This document shows positions 3,086-37,896 of a stretch of DNA of 64,000 bases, one piece after another. Every line of letters begins with the position of its first letter. Positions within the stretch are counted from its first letter, which is position 1. The notes under the pieces are model-generated. The model did not search any database and had not been told where the DNA came from. It was given only the letters and a program-made list of their open reading frames with translations. Source of the DNA: a virus (lineage: Duplodnaviria > Caudoviricetes); IMG/VR virus record IMGVR_UViG_2684623237_000002, positions 1-64,000 of that record; one strand, given 5' to 3'. Made by a program: the position numbers and the translations under genes.

Positions 3086-4221
3086 GCGGCCTTTGTCAGC
3101 AATGCGGCGAACTTGCGTTTGGCCTCTTCGACGGCTTCGGCGATGTCACGGGACGCGTTGCTGGATTCAGCGCGGTAGGTTTCCGTCAGGCCGTGCATGT
3201 CAGTCTGGAAGCTCAGGGTGGCTTCGGCCAGGGCGCGCACCGAGTCGACCTTGATGGTGGAGCCATAGCTGGCCTTGACCGCCGCTTCCAATTGGGTGTT
3301 GCCGGTGCTGCCCAGGGCTTCAAGGCCCTTGCTGATGCCGTCGGTGGTGGCATTCAGCGTGTTGGTGGCTTCGGCCAGGCCACTGTTACTGGTGAACGAT
3401 ACCGCGAGGCCGGTCAACACCACTTCGTTGGTGGAGAAGAACGAGACCATGCGCTGGTATTGGCGCTCCTTGATCACATGCACCTGGTTGATCCGGGCGA
3501 AGACCATTTCGGCCGTGTTGTAGCCGACCTTGAGGTCATCGGCGATGTCCTTGACGATCTGGTAGCGCTTGTCTTCGTCCTGCAGCGCGCGTACGGCTTC
3601 ATCGCGACGCAACTCCAGGGCCGCGCGTTCGGCCGGCGCCAGGGTTTCGGCAGCCGTAACTTGGGCGTTGGCTTCGTTCAAGGCCTGGGTACGCTGCTCC
3701 AGGACCTGGCCGGCCAGGGCAAGCACTTGTTGGGCATCGACCTCGGCCGCCTTCATGGCCATGCGGAAGTCCAAGTAGGCTTCCAGAATCACCGTTTCCC
3801 GGGAGATCTGGTCATTGGCCGACTTGCACACCTGCAGGTAGTTTTCACGGATCTCGCTGAAGCGGCTGGGGATCGAGCCACGACGCAGGTTCATCCAGCT
3901 CAGCTTGAGCTTCTCCAGCGTATCCAGGCGCCCGTCATCCATCCAGCCGGCCATGGCGGCGGCGTCTTCGCGAATCGAGGTGAAGCTCTGGGTGATGTCC
4001 ATGAAGCGTGTGGAGATATCCATGCCGGCAATCTGTTCGCGAACCACGCTGTTGAAGGTGGTCGACTGTTGCAACACGGCGGCGATAGCAGTGACTTTGG
4101 CGGTGTCGTACTGGGCAACGCGGTCCAACAATACCAGTACCGGTGCGTCTGGAACCGGCTGCAGAAGATTGATGCCCAGGGTCCGCAGGCCCGTCAGCGC
4201 GCGGTCGAGGTAGTTGCTCAT
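3082..4221 (-). CDS. Coiled-coil protein, possibly TelA/toxic-anion-resistance-like
   Basis: All-helical ORF; AAGGA SD before ATG4221; family is inferred. Confidence 0.6.
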   Translation of the reverse strand: MSNYLDRALTGLRTLGINLLQPVPDAPVLVLLDRVAQYDTAKVTAIAAVLQQSTTFNSVVREQIAGMDISTRFMDITQSFTSIREDAAAMAGWMDDGRLDTLEKLKLSWMNLRRGSIPSRFSEIRENYLQVCKSANDQISRETVILEAYLDFRMAMKAAEVDAQQVLALAGQVLEQRTQALNEANAQVTAAETLAPAERAALELRRDEAVRALQDEDKRYQIVKDIADDLKVGYNTAEMVFARINQVHVIKERQYQRMVSFFSTNEVVLTGLAVSFTSNSGLAEATNTLNATTDGISKGLEALGSTGNTQLEAAVKASYGSTIKVDSVRALAEATLSFQTDMHGLTETYRAESSNASRDIAEAVEEAKRKFAALLTKAA

Positions 4222-29233: not shown

Positions 29234-29700
29234 CCGACAAAATCAGCGTCAACTGCCAGGCCAAGCTCTCCGAAGTCATCACCAAAATCAGCGCCATGTA
29301 CAAAGACAAGAAGTATGTCGTCGTGACCCTGCGCGCGGGCAAGGACCGCACGCTTGACCAAAATCGGTTGTGGTTCGGGATGTACAAACGCATCGCCGAA
29401 ATGACCCAGATCGGTGACGCGGCTGACGCCCGGCGCTACTGCAAGCTGCACTTTGGCGTGCAAATCCTGCTGAACGAGGATGCCGGGTTCCAGGCGGAGT
29501 GGTATCGCGTCATGCGCCATCTGCCCTACGAAACAAAACTGGCCATGATGGGGGAGTGCCATTTGTTCGGGCCTGACGGCTTCCCGGTAACCAGCCTGTT
29601 CAATCGCGCCCAGGGCATCAATTACACCGACCGCATCGCCGCCTATTTCACGGGCCAAGGTGTGGTTTTCACTGATCTACTCAGCAAGGAGGCTGCATGA
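29230..29700 (+). CDS. NinB-like protein
   Basis: RTLDQNRLW motif. Confidence 0.6.
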   Translation: MTDKISVNCQAKLSEVITKISAMYKDKKYVVVTLRAGKDRTLDQNRLWFGMYKRIAEMTQIGDAADARRYCKLHFGVQILLNEDAGFQAEWYRVMRHLPYETKLAMMGECHLFGPDGFPVTSLFNRAQGINYTDRIAAYFTGQGVVFTDLLSKEAA

Positions 29701-30287
29701 TCGCCAAGCAACCCAAACCGAAGAAGTGCAAGAACCCGGCATGCGGCATCAGCTTTCCGCCGCAGCGCCTGGGCCAGGCCGTATGCAGCCCGAAGTGCGG
29801 CCTCGCTATCAAGGACGTGAACCAGGCGAAGGCGCGCAAGTCGCTGGCCCAGGTCGAGCGTCGCGAGATCAAGGTTCGCAAGGAGAAGCTGAAGAGCCGC
29901 GGCGAACACATGCGTGAGGCTCAGCAGGCGTTCAACGAGTACGTCCGCACCCGGGACCAGGCCGCCGGCCACCTCTGCATCTCCAGCGGCAAGCCTTTGG
30001 ACTGGAGCGGTAACGCAGTCGATGCCGGCCACTATCGCAGCGTTGGCTCCGCGCCACACCTGCGCTTCGATGAGCGCAACTGCCACGCCCAGAGCAAGCA
30101 GGACAACCGGTTCCTTTCCGGCAACGCGGTGGACTACCGGATCGGTCTGATCGCGCGCATCGGCCAGGAGGCCGTCGACGCCCTGGAAGCTGACCAGAGC
30201 GTGCGCAAGTACTCCGTGGAGCAGATCAAGGGCATCAAGGCCTACTACAGGGCAAAAACCAGAGAACTGAAGAGGGCTGCAGCATGA
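29697..30287 (+). CDS. ninG: NinG/Rap-family endonuclease
   Basis: AQQAFNEYVRTRD...DAGHYRSVGSAPHLRFDERNCHAQ. Confidence 0.9.
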   Translation: MIAKQPKPKKCKNPACGISFPPQRLGQAVCSPKCGLAIKDVNQAKARKSLAQVERREIKVRKEKLKSRGEHMREAQQAFNEYVRTRDQAAGHLCISSGKPLDWSGNAVDAGHYRSVGSAPHLRFDERNCHAQSKQDNRFLSGNAVDYRIGLIARIGQEAVDALEADQSVRKYSVEQIKGIKAYYRAKTRELKRAAA

Positions 30288-30829
30288 CCTATCGCAACGT
30301 TGTTTCAGCAGTAGTTCGGGCGCTCGCGGCCGAGACCATCAGTTCCGCCGGCGGCTGCGACTTTGAGCCGAAGGTGCAGTGCGCCAAACAGAAGGGGGAG
30401 ATAGTCGGAAAGGAGGCGGCGTTTCTCCAGGACTGCTGGGTGTTCGGTCGGCTGCACAAGGCGCTCACCCCGGCACACTGGCGCGCGCTGGTGGCGAAAT
30501 ACTCGACGCACCAGGAACGAAAGCATGGCGCCATTTTGGAGCTCCTGAATTCGGTGAAGACCCCGGCGCCGAAGCGCTTCCGGGAATGCGCGGTGCTGAC
30601 CTGGGCCATTCCGCAAGTTGCCGGTGCCGACGGCAAGCGTTCTGCCGCTGTGCTGCCGGCCGCCTGGTACGACATCACAAATTGGGATAACGACGGTAAG
30701 CCTGAATCTACTCGGTACCGGTGGCGCTCGACGATCCGTAAGACACTGGATGACCAGGTGAACGAGGCGCTCACTGCCGCTCAGGAACTGCTTGATGCAG
30801 AGGGATTAATCGAAAGTTGTGTGGCGTAG
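30284..30829 (+). CDS. Putative late-gene regulator (Q position)
   Basis: Last early gene, followed by a promoter-like region and a terminator. Confidence 0.55.
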   Translation: MTYRNVVSAVVRALAAETISSAGGCDFEPKVQCAKQKGEIVGKEAAFLQDCWVFGRLHKALTPAHWRALVAKYSTHQERKHGAILELLNSVKTPAPKRFRECAVLTWAIPQVAGADGKRSAAVLPAAWYDITNWDNDGKPESTRYRWRSTIRKTLDDQVNEALTAAQELLDAEGLIESCVA

Positions 30830-30909
30830 TAAAAAGCCGTTGCAATGAGTGAGAAAGTGAGAGAGTATTTACCCATCCTATCGATCTTGCGCGTTAGGGG
30901 TTCACACTG

Positions 30910-30940
30910 AAAAGCCCGGCTTATATGTCGGGCTTTTTAT
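30910..30940 (+). terminator. Rho-independent terminator (tR'-like)
   Basis: AAAGCCCGGC...GTCGGGCTTTTT. Confidence 0.75.
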
Positions 30941-30999
30941 TGCGCTCAGTTTGTGCAAGGTCGAAAATAGAGCTTCCGACTATAAACTGGGAGAGCGTC

Positions 31000-31233
31000 A
31001 TGGTTTTGCGTGGCATGGCACAGATGCATGTCGACGACTTGGCGGAACGGTTCAAGAAGTTGGTTGTAGGGCAGGCTGGCAACGCGGATATTCAGTTAGC
31101 GTGGGTTGTTTTTTATCAGGGCAGAATGTTCGGAGCTTATTCAACGGCCGAGCTTGCACTGAAGAAAATAACGGACATTGAGCACTGCATCAGCATCGAC
31201 GAGGCCCCAGTCCCTCAAACTTCAAGCGACTAA
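31000..31233 (+). CDS. Small hypothetical cargo protein
   Basis: GGGAG SD; flanked by terminators. Confidence 0.5.
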   Translation: MVLRGMAQMHVDDLAERFKKLVVGQAGNADIQLAWVVFYQGRMFGAYSTAELALKKITDIEHCISIDEAPVPQTSSD

Positions 31234-31244
31234 ATTTTTTATGA

Positions 31245-31270
31245 AGCCCCGCCTAGAGCGGGGTTTTTTA
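31245..31270 (+). terminator. Rho-independent terminator
   Basis: GCCCCGC-CTAGA-GCGGGGT followed by a T-run. Confidence 0.75.
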
Positions 31271-31310
31271 TTGCCCACGGAAAGGGCGATTCAGCAAAAG
31301 GAATTTGCAG

Positions 31311-31517
31311 ATGTTGAAAGAATTCAGATGCGGTAACTGCAAAAGACTACTCGCCCGTACGGGTGGGTTTACAGAGCTCCAGATCAAATGTTCCCGATGT
31401 GGGACGCTGAATCATGTGAAGGCCACGAGCCTCGAGCAATCGCCTTTGAGCGACACGAACGCGGGATCTTCCGCAATCATTTGTCCGACTCAAAAGGTGA
31501 ATACATGTCTTACCTGA
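31311..31517 (+). CDS. Com-family Zn-finger translational regulator
   Basis: RCGNCKRLLA...IKCSRCGTLN, as in Mu Com. Confidence 0.85.
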   Translation: MLKEFRCGNCKRLLARTGGFTELQIKCSRCGTLNHVKATSLEQSPLSDTNAGSSAIICPTQKVNTCLT

Positions 31518-32374
31518 CCCCCTTCACAGCCAATGGCAGCTCCGTGCTCCCGCCGCGAAACCTCATGAGCGCTGGCCAGTTTCTGCAGTCTCCGAATAAG
31601 CGCTTCCGGCTGATCTATCAACCAGATGAGAATCTGGCGCTATACGATGGCGATACAGCTGTGTGGATTGCAGACTCAAATAGTGCGTACGCAACCCAGA
31701 TGATCTACCAATGGAAAGCCGTATCCACACCCCAGGTTTTCATGAACTACAGCCTGGTGCTGAACGACTTTAGTCGTCAGCGTATTTGGCAGACAAAAAA
31801 CAGCGACGTACCGGGCGGCGATAAGTATTTCGATACTCTTGCACAGCGAACTCATCTTCAGCTGCAGGACGACGGCAATATGGTGATCGTTGAGTTGGCT
31901 CCGCTTTGGACCACCTCAGGCCTTCCCATTGTTTACGATCAACCGTCATACATCTTCCCACCCAACACTTCCCTTGAGGTAGGTAAGATCTACAGCGTTG
32001 GTAGCTTTGGAGTGGTGTTCCAGGGTGACGGAAACTTGGTTGTCTACGGTCCTGGCAGCTCTGTTGTTTGGGCGAGTTACACCCAGGGTAAGGGCGCTAC
32101 CAGTTGCGTGTTCCAGGGTGACGGCAACCTCGTGATTTACAACGCTGCCGGTGTTGCGCTGTGGCATACCCATACAGGTGGTAACCCAGATGCGGTTCTG
32201 AGCCTTCAGGCAAACGGCCGGCTCACCATCACTCAGGCGCGTCCCGCTTGGGCTCGATTTGGCTACACGCCGACGATCCGCGCTCGCAAAGTGTACTACC
32301 CGAACAACGCTGATCCGGAGCAAAACAGCACCAGTCCGTACCCGACTTATGGCCATATCGGCTATGAGTTCTAA
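31505..32374 (+). CDS. llpA: Lectin-like bacteriocin (LlpA/putidacin L1 family)
   Basis: Tandem MMBL domains with QDDGNMVI, QGDGNLVVY, QGDGNLVIY; C-terminal WARFGYTP. Confidence 0.9.
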   Translation: MSYLTPFTANGSSVLPPRNLMSAGQFLQSPNKRFRLIYQPDENLALYDGDTAVWIADSNSAYATQMIYQWKAVSTPQVFMNYSLVLNDFSRQRIWQTKNSDVPGGDKYFDTLAQRTHLQLQDDGNMVIVELAPLWTTSGLPIVYDQPSYIFPPNTSLEVGKIYSVGSFGVVFQGDGNLVVYGPGSSVVWASYTQGKGATSCVFQGDGNLVIYNAAGVALWHTHTGGNPDAVLSLQANGRLTITQARPAWARFGYTPTIRARKVYYPNNADPEQNSTSPYPTYGHIGYEF

Positions 32375-32517
32375 ACACTGACGGATGTGCCCATTCAGGC
32401 CCGCGGCATTGTAGTGGGCCTAGTTACAAGAAGGTCGAGAACCTCACCTCATCGCCTCTGAGCGACATGAAAGCGGAAATCTTCCGCGATAAATCATTCG
32501 ACTCAATAGGTGAAAAA

Positions 32518-32850
32518 ATGGCTGTACGTACCCTCGGTAAATATTTCAAAAATACATCCTTCAATGGCAATGCAATCTCAATCGCTACCTTGATTGCCCC
32601 TGAAGATAACCTGCACGGTGTCATCCTGCGATCCAAGACAGGTGGTGCTGATACCAGTTACGGCAAGAAGGCTCCGCCACCAGGTAACCGCTTCGATGTC
32701 AGCCTGATCCAAATTCCAAGCGTCATGCTTTCCTATAACGATGTCCTGATTCCGGCAGGTAATGGGTTGTTCATGAACCTTTCGGCTGATTACACCATCA
32801 ACATCGCAATGTCCTGGGACGTACTCAACGCCGATGGCACTGTTGCGTAA
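32518..32850 (+). CDS. Hypothetical protein behind the duplicated leader
   Basis: AGGTGA SD before ATG32518. Confidence 0.7.
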   Translation: MAVRTLGKYFKNTSFNGNAISIATLIAPEDNLHGVILRSKTGGADTSYGKKAPPPGNRFDVSLIQIPSVMLSYNDVLIPAGNGLFMNLSADYTINIAMSWDVLNADGTVA

Positions 32851-32929
32851 GTCACGCTGAAGGATGGAGCCCCGGGTAAGAAGGGGGCTCTCAAGCAACG
32901 CCGCGTGGCTGAGATCACGCAACTATTCA

Positions 32930-32956
32930 AGGCCCCTCCATTGTGCGGGGCTTTTT
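32930..32956 (+). terminator. Rho-independent terminator
   Basis: GGCCCC...GGGGCTTTTT. Confidence 0.6.
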
Positions 32957-33043
32957 CGTATTCGGCCCCACCACATCCATCGCTCTGAGCTGGGAGTGCC
33001 ACTGGGGCTGACCTCTTCAAACATGCCCCACGGAGTCGAGCGC

Positions 33044-33382
33044 ATGGAGTATCTACAGCGCCTGCTCGACAAGATCGACAGGTTCGAATTACTGATTGCG
33101 GGCCTCGTCGGCGCCGTGATCGCCAGCTGGTGGCACAAGGACGACTTGAACGACTGGCGTGCCTGGATGATCTTCCTCATCACCGGCATGGCCTGCTCGA
33201 TCTACCTGACGAGCATGGTCAGCACCTACCTGGGTGTGACGGAGCCGAAGATCGTCGCCGGCATCGGCTTCCTGCTGGGTGCATTCGGCGGTTCGCTCCT
33301 GGCGGCCATCAATCGAGCCATCAAATCCGCTGACCTCTGGGCGCTCATTCGCCAGCGGTTCGGGGGAGGCAATCCACCATGA
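33044..33382 (+). CDS. Holin
   Basis: Three TM segments, about 112 aa, charged C-terminus. Confidence 0.7.
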   Translation: MEYLQRLLDKIDRFELLIAGLVGAVIASWWHKDDLNDWRAWMIFLITGMACSIYLTSMVSTYLGVTEPKIVAGIGFLLGAFGGSLLAAINRAIKSADLWALIRQRFGGGNPP

Positions 33383-33723
33383 ATCTTGAACTGATCAACT
33401 CCATCGCCTGCGGCCTTATCGCGCTGTGGGCAGCCTGGTGCGTACTGAGCGGGAAGGTGAGGGACGGCATTCTGGGCAAGCTGATCTACTCGGCCATTGC
33501 CATCAGCGGTTTCGTCGTTATGGCGCGCAGCCAGAACATTTTCTTTGGCCCGAGCAGTGCCGGCCTGACCCTGCATGTGTCCCTGGCCCTGGCCGGAGCC
33601 CGCCATGTCTTCATGGTCACGTACTGGCAACGGGTGAAGGTCTGGCTGTGCCGGACGTTGAACTGCGAACACTGCCTGCACTGTGACAAAGCGCCTGGTG
33701 GTGTCGAGCGGCGGGGCAAGTAG
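33379..33723 (+). CDS. Holin-associated membrane protein
   Basis: Three TM segments; ATGA overlap; Cys-rich tail. Confidence 0.65.
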   Translation: MNLELINSIACGLIALWAAWCVLSGKVRDGILGKLIYSAIAISGFVVMARSQNIFFGPSSAGLTLHVSLALAGARHVFMVTYWQRVKVWLCRTLNCEHCLHCDKAPGGVERRGK

Positions 33724-35138: not shown

Positions 35139-35600
35139 ATGGCAGCCCTGAACAGTGAGGTGAAAGGCTTCATGGTTCAGGCCTTGGCGTGCTTCGACAC
35201 ACCTTCCCAGGTTGCAGCGGCTGTCCGAGAGGAATTCGGCATTGAGGTGACCCGTCAGCAGTGCGAGGCGCAAGACCCGACCAAGCGCGCCGGCCGAGAT
35301 CTGGCAAAGAAGTGGGTGACCCTTTTCCACGACACCCGTAAGCGGTTCCGTGAAGAGACAGCTGACATCCCGATCGCCAACCGCGCCTTCCGCCTCCGCG
35401 CCATGAATCGCTTCGTGGAGAAGGCCGAGACGATGAAGAACATCGGTCTGGCCATGCAGATCCTCGAACAGGCCGCGAAAGAAACCGGTGACATCTACGT
35501 CAACCGGGCACGGAAAGAAGAGGCTGGCGATGAACCGGTGATCCCGACCCGCATTCAGGTCGACGTGGTGGATGCGAGGAAGCCGAATGCCGAGCCTTAA
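35139..35600 (+). CDS. Terminase small subunit (DUF2280-like)
   Basis: VQALACFDTPSQV...QAAKE; precedes terL. Confidence 0.8.
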   Translation: MAALNSEVKGFMVQALACFDTPSQVAAAVREEFGIEVTRQQCEAQDPTKRAGRDLAKKWVTLFHDTRKRFREETADIPIANRAFRLRAMNRFVEKAETMKNIGLAMQILEQAAKETGDIYVNRARKEEAGDEPVIPTRIQVDVVDARKPNAEP

Positions 35601-37896
35601 CGTTCCGCAATCGCAGTTCCTCCTGTTACCGCACAAGTTTCGTGCATTCGTTGCCGGGTTCGGGTGCCTGCGAGGAAGCACCCTGGTTATGACTGAGTCT
35701 GGGCCTATGCCCATTCAGGAAATCGATCGGCCAATGCGCGTTCTATCGTGGTCGGCTGCGAATGATCGATTTGAGCTTGCTCTAAGTGGTGGCGCGTACC
35801 CAAAAGGTGCGGCGACGCTATTCCGAGTCGTGACGCAGCGAGGAGAATTTGTAGCAAGCGGACATCACCGCGTTCTCTGCGCTGACGGTAGCTATCGACG
35901 CGTGGATATGCTGGTCTCAGGTGAGATGGTATCTGCATCTTCGCAAAGCCTTCTTCAGACCAATTTGGCCGAAGTCCCGAAATCGTGGCACGCAGGTGAT
36001 CAGCATTCGAATCAAAGACTCGCAGATTCACTGGGTCGTTATGCAGATGAAGCCCGTCGATATGGTCAACAACTTCTGACGGAAGCAGGTATCGGCCAAT
36101 CTTCTGCTCGGCAATCAGCCGATGCTGGAACATCAAGCCAGTCTTCCTTGCTTGAGGGTGGTCGGCCGGAGCCTGGACTAGCGCATAGCCATCCAGGTCG
36201 ACAATTCTGCCTGCTTGGTAGCTGTGGTTCAGTTCGCCAAGCCGTCCTCCGCGACTCAGTCGATCTGCGTTGTGAGTCCTCAGGGTGTTCTGCACATGCT
36301 TGTCGCTGCACCCGAGAAGGCCAGCAATCTCTGCAGATGTCCGATTCTCTCCTGCAAGGGCAAGAATCTCCTGCTTCAGGCTGGATCGAGGCGCAGGCTT
36401 CGCTCGCTGCTTCAGCTTCAGGTTGTACCGCTCAATGCAGCGATAAACATGGCTGCGCTCGCACCCTGCAAGCTTCGCAACTTCTGATGCGCTGCGATCA
36501 GGCTGGGCAAGATCACAAATTTTCTGGTCTAGAGGCGTCAAATAATAGCTCCGCAATCGAATCCTGCTACATTTTAAGCGTTGTCGCACTCGATGTGGTA
36601 GAGACTTACTACGACCTGCAGGTGCTGGATAACAACTGCTACGTGACTGTCGATGGGGCTATCCATCACAACAGCGGCAAGACCTGGGTCGGATGCTCGG
36701 CACTGAGCAAGCACTTCATGGAGTGGCCCGGCGTTAACGCTGGCTACTTTGCACCGACTTACCCGCAGATCCGGGACATCTTCTATCCGACCATGGATGA
36801 GGTGGCCTACGACTGGGGGCTGAAGACCAAGATCAACCAGGCGAACCACGAAGTTCACATCTACAGCGGCCGGCAGTACCGCGGCACTGTGATTTGCAGG
36901 TCGATGGAGAAGCCGCAGACGATTGTCGGTTTCAAGATTGGTCACGCCCTGGTTGATGAGCTGGACGTGCTGACTGCCATCAAGGCTCAGCAGGCCTGGC
37001 GCAAGATCATTGCCCGTATGCGCTACAACCTTCCGGGGCTGAAGAACGGCGTGGACGTCACCACGACGCCAGAAGGCTTTAAGTTTGTCTTCCTGCAATT
37101 CGTGAAGCAGTTGCGCGACAAGCCGTCGCTCAAGGAAATGTACGGCCTGGTGCAGGCCAGCACGTTCGATAACGAGCTGAACCTGCCGGATGACTACATC
37201 GCCTCCCTGATGGAGTCGTATCCGCCGCAGCTGATCATGGCGTACCTCAAAGGCCAGTTCGTCAACCTGACGTCCGGCACGATCTACACGGCCTACGACC
37301 GCAAGCTCAACGGCTGCTTCGACACTGTGCTGCCCGGCGAGCCGCTGTTCATCGGGATGGACTTCAACGTAGGCAAGATGGCGGCGATTACCCATGTTAA
37401 GCGTGACCAGGGGCTGCCCAGGGCCGTGGATGAGCTGATCGACGGCTACGACACGCCCGACATGATCCGCCGCATCAAAGAGCGCTACTGGCAGCACGAC
37501 GGCAATGACTTCAAGAAGACCTGCGAGATCAGGATCTACCCAGATGCCTCGGGCGATTCGCGCAAGTCCGTGAACGCCAGTATCACCGATCTGGCCATGC
37601 TCAAGCAGGCCGGCTTTGCGGTCATCGCTCCCGCGGCAAACCCGCCGGTGAAGGACCGAATCAACGCAATGAACGCCGTCTTCTGCAATGCGCAGGGCGA
37701 GCGCCGCTACCTGGTCAATTCGCTCACCTGTCCGACCTACGCCGATGGCCTGGAACAGCAGGTGTGGGGCACGAACGGGGAGCCAGATAAAACCGCCGGC
37801 ATCGATCACGCGAACGACGCCGGCGGCTACTTCATCCACCGCGAGTACCCGATCATCAAACCGGTCACCGCTATCAAAATGGGATACGCCCGATGA
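35587..37896 (+). CDS. Terminase large subunit, intein-containing
   Basis: Walker A AGFG|SGKT split by the insert; LVDELD Walker B; TTTPEG; GMDFN nuclease motif. Confidence 0.95.
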   Translation: MPSLNVPQSQFLLLPHKFRAFVAGFGCLRGSTLVMTESGPMPIQEIDRPMRVLSWSAANDRFELALSGGAYPKGAATLFRVVTQRGEFVASGHHRVLCADGSYRRVDMLVSGEMVSASSQSLLQTNLAEVPKSWHAGDQHSNQRLADSLGRYADEARRYGQQLLTEAGIGQSSARQSADAGTSSQSSLLEGGRPEPGLAHSHPGRQFCLLGSCGSVRQAVLRDSVDLRCESSGCSAHACRCTREGQQSLQMSDSLLQGQESPASGWIEAQASLAASASGCTAQCSDKHGCARTLQASQLLMRCDQAGQDHKFSGLEASNNSSAIESCYILSVVALDVVETYYDLQVLDNNCYVTVDGAIHHNSGKTWVGCSALSKHFMEWPGVNAGYFAPTYPQIRDIFYPTMDEVAYDWGLKTKINQANHEVHIYSGRQYRGTVICRSMEKPQTIVGFKIGHALVDELDVLTAIKAQQAWRKIIARMRYNLPGLKNGVDVTTTPEGFKFVFLQFVKQLRDKPSLKEMYGLVQASTFDNELNLPDDYIASLMESYPPQLIMAYLKGQFVNLTSGTIYTAYDRKLNGCFDTVLPGEPLFIGMDFNVGKMAAITHVKRDQGLPRAVDELIDGYDTPDMIRRIKERYWQHDGNDFKKTCEIRIYPDASGDSRKSVNASITDLAMLKQAGFAVIAPAANPPVKDRINAMNAVFCNAQGERRYLVNSLTCPTYADGLEQQVWGTNGEPDKTAGIDHANDAGGYFIHREYPIIKPVTAIKMGYAR
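35665..36672 (+). mobile_element. 336-aa intein in the terL Walker A motif
   Basis: Block A CLRGSTLVMTESG, block B ASGHHRVL, block F TYYDLQVLDNNCYV, block G HHN followed by Ser+1. Confidence 0.93.
35705..36589 (-). CDS. Antisense HTH-HTH-HNH endonuclease nested in the intein (possible start TTG36556)
   Basis: SASEVAKLAGC and TSAEIAGLLGC HTHs; GELNHSY; HRLIAEQKIGRYL..SEVVDHIDG...NDPVNL HNH motif. Confidence 0.88.
   Translation of the reverse strand: MRQRLKCSRIRLRSYYLTPLDQKICDLAQPDRSASEVAKLAGCERSHVYRCIERYNLKLKQRAKPAPRSSLKQEILALAGENRTSAEIAGLLGCSDKHVQNTLRTHNADRLSRGGRLGELNHSYQAGRIVDLDGYALVQAPADHPQARKTGLMFQHRLIAEQKIGRYLLPSEVVDHIDGLHLHNDPVNLRVFDSNADHLRATISGLRPNWSEEGFAKMQIPSHLRPAYPRVDSYRQRRERGDVRLLQILLAASRLGIASPHLLGTRHHLEQAQIDHSQPTTIERALADRFPEWA

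Follow-up and report, generated by a model that had tools for sequence, protein, structure and literature searches.

Why does the same short RNA leader stand before two different genes of one provirus when only one of them lies directly behind the gene for a putative translational activator? The locus belongs to IMG/VR provirus record IMGVR_UViG_2684623237_000002, of which we analysed positions 1–64,000 (the window; the full record has 72,214 bases). On the + strand, an element of about 90 nucleotides (nt) that can hide a Shine-Dalgarno (SD) sequence by pairing occurs at 31420–31507, in the 3' end of com and before the bacteriocin gene llpA, and again at 32432–32520, where it is com-less and precedes a gene for a protein of 110 amino acids. 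Our data make it likely that this element is the RNA operator of a translational switch opened by the protein Com, in cis and in trans, and that the one com probably switches on both genes. The three genes concerned are:

31311–31517 (ATG to TGA), + strand: com, encoding a zinc-ribbon protein of the Mu Com type, 68 amino acids (Pfam PF10122; PHROG 6417, 'translational regulator')
31505–32374, + strand: llpA, encoding a lectin-like bacteriocin of 289 amino acids (phmmer match to Putidacin L1; Pfam B_lectin)
32518–32850, + strand: the second leader-bearing gene, 110 amino acids (PHROG 31751; small beta jelly-roll)

An original prediction, made from the DNA letters, had placed a duplicated leader at these positions, and repeat analysis bears it out. 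A repeat search recovered two repeat families that adjoin each other, one of 47 nt with 74% identity and one of 45 nt with 78%, at a spacing of 1012/1013 nt; MAFFT alignment of two 131-nt stretches gave a mean column identity of 82% over 132 columns and 87% over an 80-column core; and the core leader pattern is found twice on the forward strand of the 72,214-base record, never on the reverse strand and never in a reversed control. Copy 1 is formed by the 3'-terminal ~100 nt of com. The leader unit begins with an extra hairpin (31420–31432 and 32432–32444), which falls inside the coordinates of the original prediction and went undescribed there. The parts of the two copies are:

31420–31432, + strand: copy 1 hairpin 1, AGGC[CACGA]GCCU, a Com-type loop (CC-N2-GAG) with a closing C-G pair
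31440–31453, + strand: copy 1 hairpin 2, UCGC[CUUUGA]GCGA, a Com-type loop (CC-N3-GAG) that is also the 5' arm of the predicted SD helix
31461–31474, + strand: copy 1 inner hairpin, the likely clamp, GCGG(G)AUCU(U)CCGC, from the fold
31482–31507, + strand: copy 1 3' arm, from the fold, with the SD AGGUGA (31495–31500) and the llpA AUG (31505–31507)
32432–32444, + strand: copy 2 hairpin 1, AGGU[CGAGA]ACCU, with a C-G to U-A double change and the CC..GAG word lost
32452–32465, + strand: copy 2 hairpin 2, UCGC[CUCUGA]GCGA, also the 5' arm of the predicted SD helix
32473–32487, + strand: copy 2 inner hairpin, the likely clamp, GCGGAA AUC UUCCGC, from the fold
32494–32520, + strand: copy 2 3' arm, from the fold, with the SD AGGUGA (32508–32513) and the AUG (32518–32520)

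Both copies share one predicted minimum-free-energy fold (-26.1 and -24.5 kcal/mol for copies 1 and 2, z -2.63 and -3.02), a stability reached by 5 of 200 shuffles of copy 1 and 2 of 200 of copy 2. In this fold UCGCCU pairs with AGGUGA and GAGCGA with UCGACUC, and the inner GCGG..CCGC hairpin stands between the two strands; the pairing of TCGCCT..GAG with CTC..AGGTGA that the original prediction proposed as a means of burying the SD is thus recovered in each copy, together with low SD accessibility. The predicted unpaired probability of the SD of the 110-amino-acid gene is 0.013, the lowest among 72 candidate starts in the window, and that of llpA is 0.05–0.10 (rank 4–7 of 72), against a median of 0.38 for the 72 starts; base by base, the SD in the masked fold ranges from 0.0 to 0.25. 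In silico, then, the start signals are sequestered beside the candidate Com sites. Because the nucleotides of hairpin 2 are those of the 5' arm of the SD-masking helix, hairpin 2 and the SD mask are mutually exclusive.

The protein encoded by com is a true member of PF10122 (Zn_ribbon_Com; 77 bits against a cut-off of 22.9, E 7.3e-22), and the PF10122 profile matches only once in the 72,214-base record. Its residues R6, C7, C10, C27, R29 and C30 recur in the Com homologues of Mu, B3, JD024 and DVM-2008; a sequence search of the PDB for Com relatives returned no structure. Phage Mu supplies the nearest known system. According to the main-text passages of Nowacka et al. (2019, PMC6483171), Com is an RNA-binding activator whose site, defined by SELEX and selective 2'-hydroxyl acylation analysed by primer extension (SHAPE), is CC(N)2-3GAG, carried by the loop, six residues long, of a short hairpin with C-G as its last pair; the closing pair is reported to be C-G in every SELEX stem, and the hairpin adjoins the structure that hides the mom start. 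(Here and below, statements on published work concern main-text passages; figures, supplements and older Mu papers lie outside this scope.) The Mu site reads AUGC[CUGCGA]GCAU in the Mu record, 22 nt past the fourth Cys codon of com, and in copy 1 hairpin 1 begins at +19 and hairpin 2 at +39 after the same codon. Hairpins of this type stand near the target start in both leaders, two in copy 1, and in copy 2 one canonical and one closed by U-A. Tandem Com-type pairs with a 20-nt spacing occur in the window at the two leaders only. The original prediction had put a conserved inner hairpin at the centre of the element; such a hairpin is present, with compensatory changes in three of its four pairs, but the likely Com determinants are instead the two CC-N2-3-GAG hairpins, and the inner hairpin looks like a clamp.

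These features suggest a two-state operator. In the OFF state, as predicted in silico, UCGCCUNUGAGCGA would pair with the downstream CGACUCAAUAGGUGA, the inner hairpin would clamp this helix, and the SD would be buried. To reach the ON state, Com encoded at 31311–31517 would bind the loops of hairpin 1, AGGC[CNNGA]GCCU, and hairpin 2, UCGC[CNNNGA]GCGA; since hairpin 2 is built from the SD-masking bases, its capture by Com would dissolve the long helix and free the SD. With one set of nucleotides serving as protein-binding hairpin and as anti-SD strand, binding and unmasking would be one event. Translation of llpA would then start and, in trans, that of the 110-amino-acid gene. Folded as segments of ~115 nt, the masked state has a computed energy of -32.2 kcal/mol in copy 1 and -30.3 kcal/mol in copy 2, against -24.3 and -23.4 kcal/mol with hairpin 2 enforced and -21.7 and -20.2 kcal/mol with both hairpins enforced. 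By these model energies the OFF fold is 8–10 kcal/mol more stable, a gap that we infer to be within reach of protein binding. Placed between the late-regulator region and the holins, the two genes would probably be transcribed with the late/lysis genes, and their products would leave the cell at lysis via the adjacent holins. The ~90-nt operator would double as a conserved 5' junction for the exchange of very different cargo.

The same hairpins recur widely behind com. A com-anchored scan of IMG/VR returned 307 relatives, of which 80 were kept, and a scan of species-representative genomes returned 151, of which 78, nearly all from Pseudomonas, were kept; ten further phage records were added by name. 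Leaders were then sought with a covariance model derived from both copies of the window, a search suggested along with the original prediction. It recovered 74 leaders from a first set of 82 sources, made up of 80 IMG/VR loci, one phage record and the window itself, and 62 from a second set of 82, made up of 78 genome loci and four phage records. Both hairpins stand at the expected offsets in 136 of 155 distinct com loci, from phages of five bacterial genera; 17 of the remaining loci have hairpin 2 only, two have hairpin 1 only (Mu and L128), and none has neither. The pair follows com in Burkholderia phages phiE255 and AP3, Stenotrophomonas phage Smp131 and Moraxella phage Mcat1, as well as in Pseudomonas phages B3, JD024, PAN70, UMP151, Komp_PAO1_1 and DVM-2008. 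Stems vary by phage (AGGC/GCCU, CAGC/GCUG, GGGC/GCCC, GCGC/GCGC, ACGC/GCGU, AGUC/GACU), and hairpin 1 of Mcat1 closes with U-A. Because the leaders of the phages from other genera are otherwise unalignable with those of the window, it is structure and loop that are conserved at the level of the family.

Pairing was counted in a MAFFT alignment of 118 distinct leaders that was not fitted to the structure. Hairpin 1 pairs in 96.4% of cells, with three of its four pairs changed on both sides (26 cells), and the inner hairpin in 98.5%, again with three of four pairs changed on both sides. Hairpin 2 pairs in 99.6% of cells and its pairs never vary, while the two parts of the SD helix pair in 82% and 95.5% of cells with double changes in one pair (2 cells). 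When the 3' partners were slid by 1–3 columns, 27–54% of cells paired (35–43% for the structure as a whole), and the observed values were reached in none of 500 shuffles. The hairpin-2 core CGCC..GAGCGA shows no change in 118 of 118 leaders, although the three N positions of the loop do vary. Among the fixed bases are third positions of com codons (Ser, Ser, Asp), which points to a constraint on the RNA. As read from these aligned sequences, covariation, which the original prediction had made a touchstone of its proposal, supports hairpin 1 and the inner clamp but not the SD helix, and hairpin 2 is marked by sequence invariance. The SD mask itself, a modelled structure, draws on folding energy and conserved pairing potential, both of its arms being constrained in sequence. 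Covariation among the first 74, close relatives had been uninformative (97% paired, double changes in only two pairs), and more diverse loci were therefore required. Fold z-scores are not significant for the leader of L068 (0.45), of a second type described below, for Mu (-0.21) or for B3 (0.24), so thermodynamics alone is no marker of the family.

Some copies of the leader stand apart from com. In the window, llpA stops at 32374 and no upstream open reading frame (ORF) crosses copy 2, so ribosomes from upstream cannot open it. Among the 136 leaders found with the model, 18 lack a pattern-recognisable zinc finger upstream; on reading, six of these have com-like sequence there and 12 have unrelated sequence. 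All 12 orphans in the com-anchored loci lie downstream of a com on the same strand, and none lies upstream despite symmetrical flanks. The order seen in the window (com, lectin-like gene, orphan leader, gene for a protein of ~110 amino acids) recurs in L115, L117 and L133. A com-independent scan of IMG/VR with a 15-base pattern gave at least 123 stretches, from which 80 loci were kept; among the matches listed there were 81 distinct pattern matches and 63 full-length covariance-model matches. Thirteen of these 63 leaders, again among the matches listed, have no intact zinc finger upstream, three of the 13 being still com-like, and 14 of the 81 pattern matches are due to chance, the rest of the leader being absent.

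Whole genomes extend this picture. Five Pseudomonas genomes carry 1, 2, 6, 3 and 6 leaders and give 1, 3, 1, 1 and 6 PF10122 matches, respectively (matches, which are not copy numbers). In one of them (G003) the only PF10122 match lies at 1.51 Mb and pairs of leaders without a zinc finger lie at 2.46 and 2.50 Mb; in another (G004) com maps to 2.61 Mb, and a pair of com-less leaders to 5.06 Mb. In 19 distinct orphans, where coding constraint is absent, ATCGCC..TGAGCGACAT never varies and the hairpin-1 stem reads AGGU/ACCU, AAGC/GCUU, GAGC/GCUC or AGGC/GCCU. An invariant hairpin-2 core together with compensatory hairpin-1 stems points to selection on the RNA rather than decay. The SD arm is lost in one of the 19, and most keep the inner hairpin and the SD arm.

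The genes behind the leader are diverse. Of 135 leaders, 132 have an ORF behind the SD, and these ORFs form eight clusters. The commonest cargo is a family of 100–121 amino acids that includes the second gene of the window (66/132; members in loci L009–L166), and the others are lectin-like proteins (39/132), colicin-M-like proteins (PF14859; 11/132), DUF642 secreted proteins (7/132), proteins of 78 amino acids (6/132) and three singletons, one of them an alginate lyase. The leader thus stands before five or more cargo families that are unrelated to one another. Averaged over pairs of sequences, identity is 84.5% for the 95 nt that lead up to the AUG and 58.1% for the 95 nt that follow, against 54.6% in shuffled sequence, and this drop at the AUG implies that the leader is also the junction at which cargo is exchanged. 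The proposal that one com stands over two leader-bearing genes, and that the leader is a portable switch for cargo other than mom, is supported by comparative evidence: com belongs to PF10122, the loop motif bound by Mu Com is present in both copies, cargo families behind the leader are varied, and intact com-less copies recur.

Several observations weigh against a switch opened by Com. When hairpins 1 and 2 are enforced in silico, the SD still pairs weakly elsewhere and its unpaired probability is only 0.06–0.5 (0.83 for a single base), so the predicted ON state is not clean. Hairpin 1 of copy 2 has a U-A closing pair and is without the CC..GAG word, whereas SELEX stems are reported all to close with C-G. 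A lone Com-type hairpin is as common as chance would have it (34 in the window versus 30.5 ± 5.7 in shuffles), which leaves only the tandem pair as specific. The SD helix is almost without compensatory change (the 2 cells of one pair noted above). Ribosomes that translate com traverse all of copy 1, and coupling in cis is therefore inseparable from Com action at that copy. Finally, a premature stop in a plasmid-borne com upstream of lscB left levan formation unchanged, according to the text of Srivastava et al. (2012, PMC3899960). This last result, given in that paper as data not shown, speaks both against coupling in cis and against the cis copy of com being needed; com homologues are described in the same paper upstream of lscC and of a glycosyl hydrolase gene in the same strain, so a supply of Com in trans is probably not excluded there.

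That com ribosomes simply unwind the helix, with the Com protein irrelevant and the com-less copies decaying remnants that keep their genes poorly translated, is in our estimation unlikely. The geometry of the junction would suit such coupling, com of most relatives stopping 8–9 nt before the cargo AUG and com of the window running 13 nt into llpA, and com remnants do lie upstream of several orphans, for example before cma in DVM-2008 and in L175. Remnants under decay, however, do not account for 19 distinct orphans with an invariant hairpin-2 core and hairpin-1 stems changed only by compensatory pairs; the premature stop in the lscB cassette would abolish coupling, yet in the published account it had no effect (PMC3899960); and the Mu literature, in the passages cited, casts Com as an activator that binds RNA (PMC6483171). 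[quoted passage not shown] The fall in identity from 84.5% before the AUG to 58.1% after it (54.6% in shuffles), the presence of eight cargo clusters behind one leader, and the text report that the silent lscA became expressed when PAPE was fused to it (PMC3973379) all fit this reading. It leaves unexplained the match to the Mu Com SELEX motif, the compensatory changes, and the conservation of both hairpins, with their offsets fixed, in phages from other genera with unalignable leaders; it is also compatible with a Com switch rather than exclusive of it, and as a full account we regard it as quite unlikely.

The leader might, lastly, act as a transcription attenuator whose inner hairpin terminates or pauses transcription, or serve as the target of another RNA-binding protein, an RNase or a small RNA, which we hold to be highly improbable. 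A consensus scan for promoters and terminators does class copy 1's inner hairpin as terminator-like (GCGGGAUCUUCCGC, then AAUCAUUUGU), and it flagged nothing but the inner hairpins; the match at copy 2 is on the opposite strand only, and the tail is not U-rich, as an intrinsic terminator would have it, in copy 2 or in the consensus of the 118 leaders (GACAAAUCAUUCG). Nor does any Rfam covariance model match either leader, the five matches elsewhere in 30800–33100 all being far under their gathering scores. None of these alternatives explains both the agreement with the SELEX motif and the intact orphans.

The transcription context was examined with the same scan, which found no sigma-70-like promoter site in 30700–33100. 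Two terminator-like hairpins upstream of com, read by eye at 30910–30938 and 31247–31269 (the latter followed by U6), are both unlisted by the scan. The second, CCCCGC[CUAGA]GCGGGG, fits CC-N2-GAG in its loop and closing pair; this could be chance, single motifs being equally frequent in shuffles, or it could be a site at which Com acts on its own transcript. Public RNA libraries were searched as contigs, which show neither transcript ends nor levels. A 746-nt transcriptome contig carries com followed by another leader and its cargo, a 277-nt soil metatranscriptome contig bridges the end of llpA and the orphan leader, and a run of uncertain kind covers 32216–32900 exactly.

The arrangement in the window resembles the com-mom module of Mu in several respects. 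The regulators belong to one protein family (PF10122); a hairpin with a 4-bp stem, a C-N2-3-GA loop and a closing C-G pair lies 19–22 nt after the fourth Cys codon; and the start signals of the target lie in a helix beside or overlapping the Com site, with the target directly behind com on one transcript. The original prediction had also taken com to overlap llpA as com overlaps mom in Mu. A 13-nt overlap exists in the window (llpA ATG at 31505, com TGA at 31517), but judging by the sequences of relatives it is peculiar to the window and not the general arrangement, since com of most relatives terminates at a UAG within CAAUAGGUGA where the window has the codon AAG. While llpA thus follows com directly, the 110-amino-acid gene does not, its leader lying 1.0 kb downstream. 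Further differences set the two systems apart: the cargo here is a bacteriocin and a small protein, and in Mu it is a DNA-modification enzyme; the mask here is long-range and nested around a clamp, and that of Mu is a simple adjacent hairpin; the second Com-type hairpin here is the anti-SD arm itself; and here the operator also stands alone without com, in some genomes 1–2.5 Mb from the only com detected.

The linkage of com to cargo genes is itself already published. Small com genes have been described directly upstream of llpA, colicin-M-like genes or other cargo (Ghequire et al., 2015, PMC4684702; 2018, PMC6240691), com is stated to precede ~90% of the L-type bacteriocin genes outside P. 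aeruginosa (PMC6240691), and a cargo protein linked to com was found in a tailocin preparation (PMC4684702). The text of these papers shows the same order of com followed by cargo; it differs from our account in handling com as a protein-coding neighbour, and says that the regulatory role of Com 'remains to be explored' (PMC4684702, PMC6240691). In the main-text passages covered and in searches of the literature we found no account of an RNA leader, Com-type hairpins, an SD mask or com-less copies. What differs from Mu is the nested mask, the hairpin that doubles as the anti-SD strand, and the stand-alone operators of a probable multi-gene regulon, dispersed in some genomes. PAPE, as presented in the text of two papers on P. 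syringae (PMC3899960, PMC3973379), is the com-containing upstream block of lscB and lscC and was defined as a promoter element, with a transcription start mapped upstream of com at -339 (PMC3973379). Like the block in the window, it is mobile, conserved and com-containing, ends at the cargo gene and confers expression on the gene that follows. PAPE includes 48 bp of conserved coding sequence, whereas conservation of the window type stops at the AUG; moreover, RNA structure is not considered in the PAPE text, the words 'secondary structure' occurring 0 times in PMC3973379. Set against the definition of PAPE (promoter, com and conserved first 48 bp), the window has com and the leader, 0 promoter-like sites, and identity near background after the AUG.

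A broader proposal, which we offer tentatively, is that Com is the master of a dispersed and horizontally growing translational regulon in fluorescent pseudomonads, in which a self-contained operator of ~90 nt spreads and is copied independently of com, bringing secreted or antagonistic genes that are unrelated to one another under Com; that the binding hairpin of this operator is the anti-SD strand would be a design not described for Mu. The cargo that we assign to this putative regulon comprises lectin-like and colicin-M-like bacteriocins, a DUF642 protein, an alginate lyase and the jelly-roll protein of 100–120 amino acids, with some loci 1–2.5 Mb from the only detected com. The role of com before llpA and other cargo, presented as an open question in the text of Pseudomonas bacteriocin reviews (PMC6240691), becomes, on the present analysis, a defined and testable object, namely an operator of ~90 nt in which two candidate Com sites are combined with a mutually exclusive SD mask, and of which natural com-less copies exist that can be served only in trans. 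We also identified strains in which a single com was detected against three leaders (the genome behind L121) or six (that behind L117). If the switch is confirmed, it would explain the silence of toxic or costly antagonism genes until the late or lysis phase, and new cargo would gain Com control simply by recombining behind the leader. The Mu Com paradigm, for its part, would gain a family-wide map of natural binding sites with variable stems and loops; Mu Com is already in use as an RNA-tethering tool.

A few loci depart from the common pattern. In DVM-2008 (L004, EU982300), at 3430–3620, the record annotates nothing upstream of the colicin-M-like gene cma; the sequence there holds a com remnant, with its start out of frame and the first CxxC lost, then an intact leader of the window's type (type A), and 1.3 kb upstream there is another com, intact and followed by a different leader. 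At 2173–2253 of L027 an orphan leader is followed by ACG where relatives have ATG, and from the sequence the start of its cargo is probably lost. In L054 and L057 (around 2560) the third Cys codon of com has become Tyr and the leader is still perfect. A second leader type (type B) lies behind near-identical Com zinc fingers with the Com tail SPMSAIRPIQRPELKSAQ in L026, L040, L041 and L067–L083; it keeps both Com-type hairpins and differs in its downstream part, and in some loci com modules of both types, B and A, stand in tandem.

The product of llpA aligns with Putidacin L1 (PDB 3m7h) almost throughout (phmmer E 3.4e-70, query residues 5–265 to chain residues 7–263), so that it shares full-length similarity with a characterised LlpA, a protein with tandem lectin domains of the monocot mannose-binding kind; Pfam B_lectin exceeds its cut-off for one domain only (37.2 bits versus 32.4). 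For the 110-amino-acid protein Pfam offers no family, and a word-index protein search found five relatives, two of which bear the name '3-methyladenine DNA glycosylase' in a source, a name that Pfam does not support. Its AlphaFold model (predicted local distance difference test score 86.3) is a single beta jelly-roll. Searches of the PDB and BFVD with the model returned nothing at E <= 0.001, and VIA-align returned generic jelly-rolls only, at Z <= 7.0 (viral jelly-rolls, Ena spore-appendage subunits, a phage cement protein and the PllA lectin). Public gene calls give this protein 127 amino acids, starting from a leader-internal ATG at 32467 (GACAUGAAAGCGG). The conserved SD and its spacing favour the start at 32518; the ATG at 32467 is in frame with the gene because of an extra A at 32477 of copy 2, a base absent from the metatranscriptome contig of a relative.

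Upstream the cargo block is flanked by the NinG/late-regulator region and downstream by the lysis cassette, with the following neighbours:

29697–30287, + strand: NinG (PF05766)
30284–30829, + strand: a PHROG-3412 protein to which no function is assigned (PHROG match)
33044–33382 and 33379–33723, + strand: two holins (PHROG 2359 and 2508, 'holin')

Farther downstream, the ORF of the terminase large subunit (Terminase_6N/6C; 35572–37896, + strand) carries an insertion of ~330 amino acids at the Walker A motif, as read by eye. The insertion is bordered by ..GFG|CLRGSTLV and AIHHN|SGKTW.. and has an intein-like look, although Intein_splicing scores 16 bits, below its cut-off. Inside it, on the - strand, lies an antisense ORF of 294 amino acids (35705–36589) that matches HNH_3 (26.9 bits against a cut-off of 24.8) and helix-turn-helix domains, and the + frame of the terminase is open across the ~885 nt of this ORF. 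From the sequence, the insertion looks like an intein with an antisense-encoded homing endonuclease, which would be an unusual arrangement.

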